In this document: one piece after another, positions 2-10,761 of the stretch | How positions within the stretch are numbered: position 1 is the stretch's first letter | How the letters are laid out: each line of letters begins with the position of its first letter | Origin: Candidatus Parcubacteria bacterium | Lineage (GTDB): Bacteria > Patescibacteriota > Patescibacteriia > Patescibacteriales > BM507 | Direction of reading: 5' to 3' | DNA length: 64,000 bases | Assembly: GCA_002869265.1 (NCBI GenBank) | Contig: PKTH01000005.1 | Location: 1,423 to 65,422, forward strand | Notes under the pieces: generated by a model | The model's input: the letters and a program-made list of their open reading frames with translations, nothing else | Database searches by the model: none | Told to the model about the DNA's origin: nothing | Program-made: the position numbers and the translations under genes

Positions 2-697
2 AAAAGGAATGGTGAAAAAGAAAAAATTGAAACCGACATTATCATCATTGCCACTGGAGTAAAGGCAAATAAAAAAATTGCTGAAGACGCTGGTATTACT
101 TGCGGGCGGTCTGGAATTATTGTTGATGAGAAAATGAGAACCAATGTTAAAAATGTTTATGCCTGCGGTGATTGTGTCATGCCGGTTTCTGCCATAACAG
201 GAGAAAACACCGTCAGCCAACTTGCAAGTACTGCTATTCATCAATCCAAAATAGTCGGCTACCAAATAGCTGGATTCCCTATAAAATACCAAGGAACAAC
301 TAATGCTTTTGCTTTTAAATTTTTAGGTCGTGATTATGGACAGGTTGGTTTGAATGAAACTGAAGCTAAAAAGAAATTTAAAATAGTTGTTACAGGATCA
401 GCCGAATCAACAAATATATACCAAGACCTAGATGCCAAAAAGCCACTAAACTTTAAACTAGTCTTTGCTGGACCCAAGCTAAGGTTGGTTGGTGCTATGG
501 GTTATGGAAATGGCATCACTGGTTTCCTTGAAGTCTCCAGTATGGCAATTGGACTTAAAATGAGTATATTGAAAGTAATGAAATATAATTACATAGCCCA
601 CCCTTCCTTAACTCCTTGGCCTTTTATGAACCCAATAGTAATGGCGAGCGAAGATGCCATGGGAAAAGTAATGAATTTTTTTAAAAGAAAAAAATAA
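2..697 (+). CDS. FAD-dependent pyridine nucleotide-disulfide oxidoreductase (NADH oxidase / CoA-disulfide reductase-like), C-terminal part; 5' end outside window
   Basis: The frame is open from base 2 (KRNGEKEKIETDIIIIATGVKAN...GIIVDEKMRTNVKNVYACGDCV). Track ORF 134..697 is only the ATG-trimmed tail. It has a YAxGD-type FAD motif followed by a dimerisation-type C-terminal domain, and a hairpin terminator follows. Confidence 0.7.
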   Translation, partial: KRNGEKEKIETDIIIIATGVKANKKIAEDAGITCGRSGIIVDEKMRTNVKNVYACGDCVMPVSAITGENTVSQLASTAIHQSKIVGYQIAGFPIKYQGTTNAFAFKFLGRDYGQVGLNETEAKKKFKIVVTGSAESTNIYQDLDAKKPLNFKLVFAGPKLRLVGAMGYGNGITGFLEVSSMAIGLKMSILKVMKYNYIAHPSLTPWPFMNPIVMASEDAMGKVMNFFKRKK

Positions 698-706
698 ATC
701 TCTATA

Positions 707-750
707 AAAAAGGAAAAAGGGAGACGGACATTGTGTTCGTCTCCCTTTTG
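707..750. terminator. Bidirectional intrinsic terminator
   Basis: Stem GGGAGACG (719-726) / CGTCTCCC (738-745), flanked by an A-run upstream and a T-run downstream. It serves the + CDS ending at 697 and the minus-strand RNA unit coming from ~1274. Confidence 0.75.
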
Positions 751-1017
751 TTGGGGTTAATTTCCGCCTGGCCGCCTACATGGCGCCGGCACCGTTGTTG
801 TAATTACTCATCTCTATTTGGGCTGTTTGTAAAACGGGACTGCCTCGAGTCTTCGGCATTTTTGCCTCCTGGCGATGTCGGTGTTTACGATCTGCGCGTT
901 CCGCGCGGGCGAAATGAGAATACTTGGGGCGAACTGGTCACGATAGACCTCCTTTGTCAAATCACCCGAGCATTCTCTGCCTCACCACTGCTGGGTGAGA
1001 CAAGAAAAAAAGATCAT

Positions 1018-1119
1018 CTTTGGTGGAAGACAAAGAATTTTTACTAGAAGATATCTAGCCGTAGCCAGATCAATCCCTAGTGCCAACCCTCATGCTTGTC
1101 GTGCCTTCCCCCACCAAAG
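1018..1119 (-). repeat. RNA module A (homologous to module B)
   Basis: Minus-strand read: CUUUGGUGG-GGG-AAGGCA ... UGUCUU-CCACCAAAG closing helix (9 bp + 6 bp). Internal blocks GGCACGACAAGCAU, GGCUACGGCUAG and AAUUCUUUG are identical to module B. Confidence 0.55.
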
Positions 1120-1143
1120 GGGACCTTTTATTTTAAATCAACT

Positions 1144-1242
1144 TATACGGGCAGGCAAAGAATTATTGTTAGAAACCAACTAGCCGTAGCCGGTAAAATA
1201 GCCCAAACGCAAATCCCTATGCTTGTCGTGCCTCCCCGTATA
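1144..1242 (-). repeat. RNA module B (homologous to module A)
   Basis: Minus-strand read: UAUACGGG-G-AGGCA ... UGCCU-G-CCCGUAUA closing helix (8 bp + 5 bp around one G/G mismatch). It has the same three conserved internal blocks as module A. The outer helix sequence differs from A but pairing is preserved. Confidence 0.55.
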
Positions 1243-1280
1243 AAATGACTTAATATTTAATGTTCAATTCAAGACCTTTT

Positions 1281-1309
1281 AATATATCACAGTTATAAAT
1301 ATTTGTCAA
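1281..1309 (-). promoter_or_regulatory. Sigma70-type promoter for the structured RNA unit
   Basis: Minus strand: TTGACA (1309-1304), 17-nt spacer, TATATT (1286-1281). Confidence 0.55.
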
Positions 1310-1336
1310 TAGTAAATAAGCCCTATTTTAAAATAT

Positions 1337-1367
1337 AAAAAAACATCATTATATTTGATGTTTTTTA
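1337..1367 (-). terminator. Intrinsic terminator after the MFS gene
   Basis: Hairpin AAACATCA / TGATGTTT with flanking A/T runs, just downstream of the minus-strand stop at 1386. Confidence 0.6.
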
Positions 1368-1385
1368 TTTAATTTTAGCTATTAT

Positions 1386-2597
1386 TTAATCCACCAAGAC
1401 ACTTTCCTTGGAAATAAATATAGTCAAAAAGAATGTTAAGATTCCAGCGAATACCAATACTGAAATTAAAGATTGGACAATGCTAAACTTAAATAGAAGT
1501 ATTGCAAATAGGCCTAATGAGAAAAACCTGCCTACATGCAAGTAAACCTCTCGATTCATTATCCTGTTTGCTACATCATCCTTTGACCACCTAAAAAATC
1601 CAGCATTTAATGACAGGTGGACCAAGCCACCAAAGATACCCCCCATTGTCTGAAATGTAGTTAGGCTAATTATAGTTGTTGCAAATGCTCTAAGTATCAT
1701 AGAAAGACCATGTCCGGCTGCTCCAATTCTTACGATTTTATGAGATCCGTTCTTATCTATTATTCTGCCACTAAAATTGGCTATAATGGCGTAGGCGAGA
1801 TTTGAAAATAAATATAGAACTCCCATTGAAATCAATTTAACTGAAAGATAAAAGAGAAGCAGCGGCCAAATAAGACCAGTAGAAGAATAGCCCATCCCCT
1901 GTATGACATAAATAATGTTTTTTCTATATCCCCTTCTATCAAATATTTCTCTTATATTTAGATTTACATTTATTGGCTGAATTTTTTCAGAAAAGAATAA
2001 AAAGAATGAGGCTATTAACAAGAAGAGAGAACTAACGACAAAGCTAGCTTGGAAATTAAAATTAGTTATTAGGATACTACCCAGAAAAGGACTGATAATG
2101 GCCACCATCGTAGGGATGGAGCTCATAATTGCTAATTTTTTACCTGCATTTTCTTTTTCGACAGAACTAATAAAATAAACGTGGTGAGCGGTCCAATACA
2201 AAGTAATGGCCACAACGTTTAAAAATCCCAAAAGAACTAAAAATAAAATCATCCCTATTTTTGAAAATAAAATATCTGTACAAAACAAAACAATATAAAA
2301 TAAAATGTTTACGAAATAGCTTGATGTAAGAGTTCTTTTAACTCCCCAATTATTAATATTACTTAAAATAAAATAATGCATCGGGACAGTTGCCAAAAAA
2401 ATACCTAACTCAAAAAAAGCAATATGGAAAATGCTAAATCCTGATTCGATTAAAAAAATAGGGACAAAAAGAGAAATCATTGATAGAGCCAAAAGCCGAA
2501 GAACGTCTGCCATCAAAAGATCATTATATTTATCTTTTAAAAACTTAGCTAAGTGAAGATGCTTGTCTATTTGCATCTCGTGGTGATATTTATCCAT
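1386..2597 (-). CDS. MFS-type multi-pass membrane transporter
   Basis: 403 aa, about 12 hydrophobic helices in a two-halves MFS-like layout. Substrate unknown. Confidence 0.55.
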   Translation of the reverse strand: MDKYHHEMQIDKHLHLAKFLKDKYNDLLMADVLRLLALSMISLFVPIFLIESGFSIFHIAFFELGIFLATVPMHYFILSNINNWGVKRTLTSSYFVNILFYIVLFCTDILFSKIGMILFLVLLGFLNVVAITLYWTAHHVYFISSVEKENAGKKLAIMSSIPTMVAIISPFLGSILITNFNFQASFVVSSLFLLIASFFLFFSEKIQPINVNLNIREIFDRRGYRKNIIYVIQGMGYSSTGLIWPLLLFYLSVKLISMGVLYLFSNLAYAIIANFSGRIIDKNGSHKIVRIGAAGHGLSMILRAFATTIISLTTFQTMGGIFGGLVHLSLNAGFFRWSKDDVANRIMNREVYLHVGRFFSLGLFAILLFKFSIVQSLISVLVFAGILTFFLTIFISKESVLVD

Positions 2598-6122: not shown

Positions 6123-6746
6123 TTATCTTGCGGGAACGTACCTAAAAATTTTTTTGATGGCACGATCAATTTTTTCTGAAACCAGCTGACCATACAAAAT
6201 GTCAGTTTTCTTGTAGTGCCCAACCTGATTCCACAAACGATCTTCATCTGTGAAGTCTAGATACGAAAATGTATTTCTCCCACCATCTCCACCATTGTTG
6301 ACCACAACATCTGGATTAGCTCCAAATATTTCATAAGAAAAAACCGAATCAAAACACCTGCTTTCCTCTCTATCGTGGGGGAGAAGAAAATAAACGATTC
6401 CTGAGATATCTGTCTTTTCAATATATCCTTCTTTTCTACAAGAATGAAGTTTATTTCTGAAGTGAGACTTTAAGAAAAATACTCGTTTCCAATCACCAGA
6501 TTCAAGGCCGCCTATATAATGCTTAGAGAATTCTCTAAAACGATTTTTATCTCCTTCCATTGAGTTAAACTCAAAAGAAAGCATTATTGGCTTTTCAATT
6601 GAAACATCATTTTCCAGAACATAGGATTTGACCATGTACACATAGAATGTTTCAGAACTATCTGAACCTTGACCAATCATAACAGCAAATGAAATGCTTG
6701 GAATCAAAATCATGGACAAAATTAAAAATGCAATATACTTTTTCAT
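6123..6746 (-). CDS. Secreted hypothetical protein
   Basis: 207 aa. N-terminal signal peptide (MKKYIAFLILSMILIPSISFA), SD-like AAGGAGGAA upstream, terminator downstream. No recognisable domain. Confidence 0.5.
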   Translation of the reverse strand: MKKYIAFLILSMILIPSISFAVMIGQGSDSSETFYVYMVKSYVLENDVSIEKPIMLSFEFNSMEGDKNRFREFSKHYIGGLESGDWKRVFFLKSHFRNKLHSCRKEGYIEKTDISGIVYFLLPHDREESRCFDSVFSYEIFGANPDVVVNNGGDGGRNTFSYLDFTDEDRLWNQVGHYKKTDILYGQLVSEKIDRAIKKIFRYVPAR

Positions 6747-7243: not shown

Positions 7244-7359
7244 TTCTGGCGGTGACCTACTTTCCCAGGGCTCAGGCCCAAGTATCATCGGCGCTAAGAG
7301 GCTTAACTTCTGAGTTCTGTAAGGGATCAGGTGTGACCCTCCTGCAAGGACCACCAGAA
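7244..7359 (-). rRNA. rrf: 5S ribosomal RNA
   Basis: The reverse complement reads TTCTGGTGGTCC...CAGAACTCAGAAGTTAAGC...GCGCCGATGATACTTGGG...GGGAAAGTAGGTCACCGCCAGAA, the canonical bacterial 5S pattern. Confidence 0.93.
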
Positions 7360-7427
7360 TAATGGCGTCTTTTAAATAAGACCAAATAAATACTTAACAA
7401 GTTAAAATCAATATTGTGAGAAAATCA

Positions 7428-10572
<3,145 letters not shown>

Positions 10573-10761
10573 TTTTCTCACACTATTGACTTCAACAGTG
10601 TTTGAAATCGACTATCAGCAAAATTGATAGTCTAAATTTAAAATTGCAATATTGCAAATTTTAGATGCTTGTTAAGTATTTAAATGTCAAAGGTCTTATT
10701 AGAATTTTTATCAGCAATTTAATTTCTTAAATTACTGAACCAATCTTCTAATTTTTTAACA

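Follow-up and report, generated by a model that had tools for sequence, protein, structure and literature searches.

The window analysed here is a 64,000-nt stretch of a Candidatus Parcubacteria bacterium contig (GenBank PKTH01000005.1, positions 1,423 to 65,422, forward strand), and the subject of this report is the region between its Pyr_redox gene (plus strand, stop codon at 697) and an MFS transporter gene (Pfam MFS_1; 1386..2597, minus strand). This region is rich in G+C (0.45-0.53 over 750..1200; flanking DNA 0.20-0.38), and 566 nt of it were predicted to fold with z = -5.5 relative to shuffles. Read on the minus strand, the MFS gene is followed by a hairpin and U-run, a promoter, an A/U-rich leader of ~30 nt, two hairpin units, a run of seven U residues (U7) and a G+C-rich stretch running towards the convergent Pyr_redox gene (Table 1). 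The two hairpin units (1249..1012, minus strand) are tandem copies of a previously undescribed, stand-alone, rod-shaped small RNA of ~113 nt found in Parcubacteria-type bacteria of the candidate phyla radiation (CPR). An earlier note, made from the letters of this stretch, had pointed out the conspicuous G+C content, the promoter, the two modules, the hairpin and U-run at 745..719 and two AGGAGG-led mini open reading frames (ORFs) with hairpins, and all of these are present, the hairpins of the mini-ORFs measuring 4 bp. It had also considered two plus-strand ORFs called across the region (733..1047 and 995..1183) implausible; neither has a Pfam match, and the annotation is corrected here in that the ORFs called across the RNA region are spurious.

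Table 1. Features of the tandem RNA locus and of the corresponding region in relatives
Feature	Position	Strand	Remarks
Promoter of tandem RNA unit	1281..1309	-	-35 TTGACA 1309..1304, 17-nt spacer with TG, -10 TATATT 1286..1281
RNA copy 1 (module B of the earlier note), full-length member, no U-run behind	1137..1249	-	R2 82.8 bits, E 3e-19; folds as single long hairpin
Copy 1 invariant one-sided bulge CGACAAGCAU	1219..1228	-	Between GGCA/UGCC and G.U-rich helix
Copy 1 apical tetraloop UACG	1185..1188	-	Closed by conserved G.U, G-C, C-G pairs
RNA copy 2 (module A of the earlier note), full-length member	1012..1125	-	R2 80.6 bits, E 1e-18
Copy 2 invariant bulge CGACAAGCAU	1092..1101	-	Sequence and family alignment
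Copy 2 apical tetraloop UACG	1060..1063	-	Sequence and family alignment
U7 run right behind copy 2 closing helix, probable intrinsic terminator	1005..1011	-	Same helix and U-run in most single-copy relatives
G+C-rich 3' region outside conserved family; short GC hairpins, diverged micro-ORFs	749..1004	-	No similarity, weak fold
GUG mini-ORF, 18 aa, ..FRPRGTRRS*, AGGAGG upstream	885..941	-	Possible diverged counterpart of ..RRPRDR[LI]*
AUG mini-ORF, 27 aa, MPKTRGSP..., AGGAGG upstream	776..859	-	Counterpart of M[AT][KQ]NKGQP.. in relatives
Hairpin GGGAGACG/CGUCUCCC between A-run and U-run, bidirectional terminator	714..748	both	Also serves convergent Pyr_redox (..697, plus strand)
A/U-flanked hairpin behind MFS transporter gene	1337..1366	-	Read from sequence; divides MFS gene from RNA promoter; terminator role inferred
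Hairpin and micro-ORF region of relatives	L024 1081..1500		
Hairpin and micro-ORF region of relatives	L067 12440..12000	-	
Hairpin and micro-ORF region of relatives	L071 7524..7085	-	

Homologous loci (numbered L001 onwards) were retrieved with a pattern joining the bulge block of the hairpin to its tip block. This pattern gave one true match and two chance matches in coding sequence among 185,579 species-representative genomes, and 18 true and 3 chance matches among metagenome contigs. A covariance model of 45 base pairs (R2) was built from the relatives so retrieved, and syntenic loci were gathered via the neighbouring VanW protein (53-69% identity). R2 found both modules of the window (E about 1e-19) and no copy besides this tandem pair over the 64 kb. 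The family comprises 34 R2 matches (64-117 bits) from ~20 metagenomic or metagenome-assembled genome lineages; 29 of these copies were aligned, and the figures on anatomy and covariation refer to them. Copies missed by the pattern were recovered by the model: a second copy in L024, which forms a tandem there, and a second copy in L006 (6946..7058 and 6563..6673, minus strand), 270 nt from the first. In L006 a clear promoter was seen only at the upstream copy, and the downstream copy is bracketed by a 19-nt inverted repeat (TTAATTAATCTGTGGGTCT / AGACCCACGGATTAATTAA, 18/19 matches).

The RNA was found in 7/7 distinct VanW-syntenic loci (80-90 bits), always directly convergent with VanW; the Pyr_redox homolog loci at 56-61% identity (L027-L030) yielded none. 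The VanW protein of the window genome has a 100% identical match named Candidatus Parcubacteria bacterium, and the VanW protein of one syntenic locus is named Candidatus Falkowbacteria RIFOXYB2_FULL_34_18 in its source record, names which support the CPR attribution. JGI contig Ga0102541_1104642 (L001) shows no difference from window positions 700..1400 (the 701 nt compared), and an ENA contig (L002) carries an identical MFS protein and the same two module sequences. A phage origin was considered and rejected: scans of viral contigs gave 0 and then 36 pattern matches, 0 of which passed the covariance model. The family is new, being absent from Rfam 15 and not found in the literature (no description of this RNA was found in full-text literature on CPR non-coding RNAs); as a kind of molecule, the stand-alone structured small RNA is familiar.

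Every aligned copy forms one long rod-like hairpin, 108-115 nt in total length. The closing helix, P1, has 15 + 6 bp (21 bp), with a conserved inner GGCA/UGCC and an outer part that covaries completely. It is followed on the 5' strand by the bulge CGACAAGCA, with 0-1 nt opposite, which is identical in 29/29 copies, an invariance that is partly ascertainment and counts that much less for the reading given here, 20 of the 29 having been retrieved by a pattern that demands most of the bulge and tip. The other 9, which came from synteny and the model, nevertheless keep CGACAAGCA exactly, with tips that differ by compensatory or loop changes (GGU-UUCG-ACU, UAAG loops). The nucleotide after CGACAAGCA is U in 25 copies, C in 3 and A in 1. 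Beyond the bulge lies P2, a helix with conserved G.U pairs (GGGGAUUU/AAAUUUCUU), then a variable middle with small internal loops, and finally a tip in which G.U, G-C and C-G pairs close a UACG (15 copies), UCCG (6), UUCG (5) or UAAG (3) loop. Spacing from bulge to loop is 26-30 nt, and 28 nt in 15/29, despite diverged helix sequences. Between the two window modules, 71/110 alignment columns are invariant, including the three identical blocks seen in the earlier note.

The proposal that the differing but pairing closing helices of the two modules reflect a conserved fold is borne out across the family. Of the alignment cells, 87.0% pair, against 70.8% after shuffling, double-sided changes occur in 34/45 pairs, and the outer 15 bp of the closing helix have compensatory changes at 14-15 pairs. 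The covariation score is 0.519 against 0.228 shuffled, with 0/500 shuffles reaching the observed value and at most 0.206 when the partner is slid by 1-3 columns; these covariation figures are flattered, the alignment having been fitted to the model. Independent per-sequence minimum-free-energy folds reproduce the same architecture. Pairs of G.U outnumber A.C by 152 to 59 and R2 scores the reverse strand at only 12-14 bits, so that the signal is at the RNA level and on the strand of the promoter. Conservation of structure, as is characteristic of a stand-alone small RNA gene, is thus seen by covariation on one strand.

These data bear on whether the element could instead be a DNA-level palindromic repeat, such as a miniature inverted-repeat transposable element (MITE), or an elaborate bidirectional terminator between convergent genes. 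Many copies are indeed long imperfect palindromes with A-run and T-run flanks lying between convergent genes, and the contigs of several relatives end near expected copies. The excess of G.U over A.C pairs and the one-sided invariant bulge are however RNA-level features, and dedicated consensus promoters point into the hairpin. In a test against MITE and repetitive extragenic palindromic elements, the window held only the tandem pair, and the copies were syntenic and 50-82% identical with compensatory changes, rather than near-identical and dispersed. VanW moreover has a terminator hairpin of its own beside the RNA, between its stop codon and the RNA; this also disposes of a terminator shared with VanW as the reason for the synteny. 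We give the DNA-level explanation next to no credence.

Signals expected of a stand-alone small RNA gene, an own sigma-70-type promoter and an intrinsic terminator, were predicted for the family. The promoter of the tandem unit has 11/12 consensus matches plus the TG extension and is the top-scoring site of the region, and in at least 13 other copies TTGACA-17/18-TAnnnT, often with TG, precedes the hairpin by 22-37 nt. Most copies have 6-8 U residues straight behind the closing helix, which an A-rich leader can lengthen. In most lineages the gene that comes next is convergent (VanW in many, a 245-aa protein in one group and Pyr_redox in the window), and no same-strand downstream gene is conserved across lineages. 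A small same-strand ORF does follow the RNA in L012-type loci and in L018, and the proteins of these two settings are unrelated to each other. Taken together, these signals and gene arrangements rule out a general cis-regulatory role and leave a tandem riboswitch unsupported. In the L012 group the ORF encodes a conserved 93-97-aa protein (L012 3334..3618, L016 3301..3594, L020 469..750 and L026 336..55), which is 44-100% identical within its lineage group and absent from other lineages. The L018 copy (1410..1521, minus strand) lies in a mobile-element-like context with a helicase, a MerR-like helix-turn-helix protein and small ORFs, 8 nt upstream of a 97-aa ORF and without a consensus promoter or U-run.

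The tandem pair is an old duplication retained in at least four related genomes: that of the window, L024, L067 and L071. Copy 1 of the window matches its L024 counterpart at 79% identity and copy 2 at 82%, against only 60% between copies 1 and 2 of the window; the copies thus arose before these genomes separated, and neither has since been lost. In L067 and L071 the tandem pair likewise lies on the far side of the Pyr_redox gene. A third copy was found in L001 (8604..8717, plus strand, 84.8 bits), 830 nt outside the window on the side of position 1. It has a TTGACA promoter and a U7 terminator to itself and is convergent with VanW and divergent from Pyr_redox. The window genome thus has at least three copies, all in one orientation and flanking Pyr_redox. 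Between the third copy and VanW, a 135-aa ORF without a Pfam match was called (L001 8752..9159, plus strand); it may be spurious, as relatives have just a terminator hairpin there. Contigs L068, L074, L075 and L076 stop within ~100 nt after Pyr_redox, short of where tandem copies would lie, and these contig ends look like assembly breaks close to a repeated RNA gene.

The tandem unit would be a single two-copy transcript of roughly 270 nt, from ~1274 to ~1005. The earlier note had the unit framed by the hairpin at 745..719, to which generic terminator-containing Rfam models align on both strands and which a simple terminator scan had overlooked because its loop exceeds 8 nt. With the U7 run directly behind copy 2, an arrangement also seen in single-copy relatives, the end of the unit is probably at that run and not at 719. 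The suggestion of one ornate RNA of ~0.5 kb likewise gives way to a conserved unit of ~113 nt.

The G+C-rich 3' region behaves differently from the RNA copies. By blastn it showed no similarity to any locus, including the closest relative L024; alone it folds only modestly better than shuffles (z = -2.2), and neither a plausible protein in six frames nor an Rfam match was found in it. The Shine-Dalgarno (SD)-AUG mini-ORF at 776..859 is the sole island conserved between it and L024. The corresponding gap in L024, L067 and L071 measures 570-1157 nt, its ORFs do not exceed 74 aa, and Rfam models do not match it; its first ~200 nt are 72% identical among the three, which share a conserved hairpin in these downstream regions, and in L067 and L071 a second promoter (TTGACAG-17-TAGTAT) follows right behind the tandem. 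Two conserved micro-ORFs, both SD-led, are present there. One begins M[AT][KQ]NKGQP.., with its first 8 residues conserved in L024, L067 and L071 and a length that, with the window's version counted, is not conserved (10, 10, 27 and 27 aa). The other ends in ..RRPRDR[LI]*; its 7 core codons all vary among the three sequences, 6 of them without a change of amino acid (AGA to CGC for arginine is one such case), and each of the three stops at TAG. Such near-synonymous codon variation argues for translation and suggests that the micro-ORFs of the relatives encode peptides of 8-27 aa. Their motifs were found only in the tandem-bearing clade and not in other lineages.

The interest taken by the earlier note in the mini-ORFs is thus justified for the relatives, where counterparts conserved at the codon level lie downstream of the tandem, and less so for the window itself, whose versions look like diverged forms of them. 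They stand in the opposite order, without the second promoter and behind a probable terminator; the ORF at 885..941 shares only an R-P-R core with ..RRPRDR[LI]*, and that correspondence is uncertain. We infer that the G+C-rich 3' region is a separate neighbouring element, decaying or fast-diverging in the window genome, and not an expression platform of the RNA. Decay of a protein-coding gene, a possibility raised at the outset, found no support in the form of a convincing frame or a Pfam match, and similarity to relatives was limited to the one SD-AUG island. The idea that the micro-ORFs are the two ends, N-terminal and C-terminal, of a broken gene for L34 or L35 (rpmH or rpmI) was also rejected, the resemblance being weak and the middle motifs missing in all frames. 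A transfer-messenger RNA (tmRNA) was suggested faintly by the tag-like ORF end ..NYNNGAGAM* in the 3' part, and neither ARAGORN (window) nor Rfam found one.

One of the two readings in the earlier note was of a pair of riboswitch aptamers in tandem, with an expression platform behind them through which ligand binding would govern translation of the mini-ORFs. In its favour, four relatives keep the tandem and have SD-led micro-ORFs behind it (two of these ORFs with codon-level conservation in three of the four), and the second copy lacks a U-run in three. Most lineages, on the other side, have a single copy with its own promoter and terminator and then a convergent gene. The closing helix is itself the terminator stem, which leaves no platform of alternative pairing, and the rod-shaped fold has neither a multi-helix junction nor a pocket. 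The U7 run parts copy 2 from the ORF region in the window, a separate promoter does so in L067 and L071, and all other lineages lack the micro-ORFs. No known aptamer model matched, and the RNA was not found in the 5' leader of a conserved gene across lineages. We consider regulation of the mini-ORFs by tandem aptamers very improbable.

As to function, we propose that the RNA acts in trans as a protein-docking or ribonucleoprotein (RNP) small RNA. Its partner would read the looped-out invariant bulge along with the G.U helix beside it and the tip, set at a constant distance, in a manner comparable to 4.5S, 6S or Y RNAs and without membership in those families. How far the tip lies from the bulge along the helix, the G.U pairs next to the bulge, and the tip itself are properties for which a structure-reading partner would select and which a pairing seed would not require.

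The bulge could instead be such a seed. The copies would then be sibling base-pairing small RNAs (sRNAs) whose CGACAAGCAU bulge, exposed between two helices, pairs with an mRNA target AUGCUUGUCG (which contains AUG), the copies being additive as in Qrr or PrrF. Three observations fit this account: the single-stranded 9-10-mer does not change although the helices drift, genomes of some lineages have 2-3 copies, and each gene has a promoter and terminator. Neither 207 kb of loci nor the window contained a consistent complementary site, however; matches with at most one mismatch occurred at chance level and in unrelated places. The complement ATGCTTGTCG, with at most one mismatch or G.U allowed, gave only chance-level matches, none of them in the 23S or 5S ribosomal RNA (rRNA) of the window, and a recurrent near-match in the YACGDC codons of the relatives' Pyr_redox genes is not shared by the Pyr_redox gene of the window. 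Nor does a seed account for the constant spacing of bulge and loop, or for the conservation of the G.U pairs and the tip. We regard a seed-pairing sRNA as the main rival and a serious one, though less probable than protein docking.

Several points besides the ascertainment noted above weigh against the protein-docking proposal and the stand-alone unit on which it builds. The docking mechanism is drawn from the pattern of conservation, and the invariant single-stranded 10-mer would suit a base-pairing seed equally well. Promoter use, the RNA ends and termination behind copy 2 are predictions from sequence; the second tandem copies of L024, L067 and L071, having no U-run, would permit read-through into the micro-ORF region. 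No RNA-binding protein gene stands consistently next to the RNA, and the same-strand ORFs of L012-type loci and L018 depart from the convergent arrangement. With these points considered, we judge the chances about even that the best explanation is right as a whole: a new stand-alone RNA family, present here as a two-copy transcript, with a protein-docking or RNP role and a separate 3' region. Less likely than not, and offered tentatively, is a more specific version of it. The RNA would be the RNA subunit of a novel RNP, or a regulator, specific to Parcubacteria-type CPR bacteria and conserved across much of the radiation, as its presence beside VanW at every syntenic locus tested would suggest; the bulge and tip would contact a dedicated protein, and in one clade the gene would have been triplicated beside a separately transcribed element for translated micro-peptides of 8-12 aa (..RRPRDR[LI]).

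CPR bacteria, or Patescibacteria, make up a large share of bacterial diversity and have tiny genomes, and to our knowledge almost nothing has been established about their non-coding RNAs. A strong promoter, an invariant 9-nt bulge and a fixed geometry have been kept while the helices fully diverged, and the RNA was present at every syntenic locus examined; it is thus likely to be important in these reduced cells. The covariance model and alignment make it searchable in all CPR genomes and metatranscriptomes and usable as bait for a partner. The finding also points to micro-ORFs conserved at the codon level near the RNA genes and offers a reason for the tendency of related assemblies to break at this place.

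Known RNA classes were compared at two levels of stringency. At gathering thresholds, Rfam 15 models matched only 23S rRNA, 5S rRNA and transfer RNAs in the 64 kb, in keeping with the statement in the earlier note that no known family could be recognized. Relaxing the limit to E up to 10 brought in nothing but terminator-type and generic hairpin noise for window positions 650..1400, and the outcome was the same for five homolog loci and for four related loci. A template and variable repeat pair of a diversity-generating retroelement was rejected, the differences between the modules not being adenine-specific. As to the rRNA genes themselves, the 23S match (7416..10579, minus strand) spans 3164 nt against a model of 2925 positions, which suggests ~240 nt of insertions; the 5S gene (7244..7358, minus strand) follows it, and a 16S gene is absent throughout the 64 kb, so the rRNA genes may be unlinked.

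In outline the new RNA resembles the signal recognition particle (SRP) RNA (4.5S, RF00169): both are single rods, of ~113 nt in the new family and 114 nt in the 4.5S RNA of E. coli, both have a gene of their own with a strong promoter, and both end in a conserved tip capped by a tetraloop. Its primary transcript probably carries a 5' leader of 20-30 nt, and the 4.5S precursor also carries a 5' leader. Together with its presence in every syntenic locus tested, this raises the question of a highly divergent housekeeping RNA, SRP or 6S, missed by the Rfam models. However, neither the gathering score nor a limit of E up to 10 gave an SRP match in window positions 650..1400 or in five homolog loci, and there was no 6S match in these sequences either. 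The domain IV (helix 8) motif of SRP RNA, where Ffh binds, is lacking: the tip is UNCG or UAAG and not GNRA, and no conserved symmetric and asymmetric loops lie below it. The sole conserved loop is instead a one-sided bulge of 10 nt, ~27 bp from the tip, and the RNA reaches three copies in some genomes.

With 6S RNA (RF00013 and relatives) the new RNA has in common a mostly double-stranded, stand-alone and abundant-looking form, an unpaired segment of the 5' strand between long helices, and paralogs. Known 6S RNAs are ~160-200 nt long, hard to detect by sequence and at times duplicated. At ~113 nt the new RNA falls far below these lengths; its bulge faces 0-1 nt on the 3' strand, so there is no two-sided central bubble that would resemble an open promoter, and its closing helix lacks the length to imitate DNA as far as the -35 region. 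A divergent SRP or 6S RNA is accordingly quite improbable.

Like the sibling sRNAs Qrr1-5 and PrrF1/2, the paralogs share an invariant single-stranded stretch while the rest diverges, occur as a tandem pair and have an intrinsic terminator per copy. In those sRNAs the seed lies at a 5' end or in a hairpin loop, whereas the candidate seed here bulges out of a 50-bp rod whose geometry and tip are also conserved; no target was found for it. Tandem riboswitches, such as those for glycine, also place two homologous structured units on one transcript; the new RNAs differ from them in being junctionless rods that are mostly single-copy, do not lie upstream of genes, and use the closing helix as a terminator as well.

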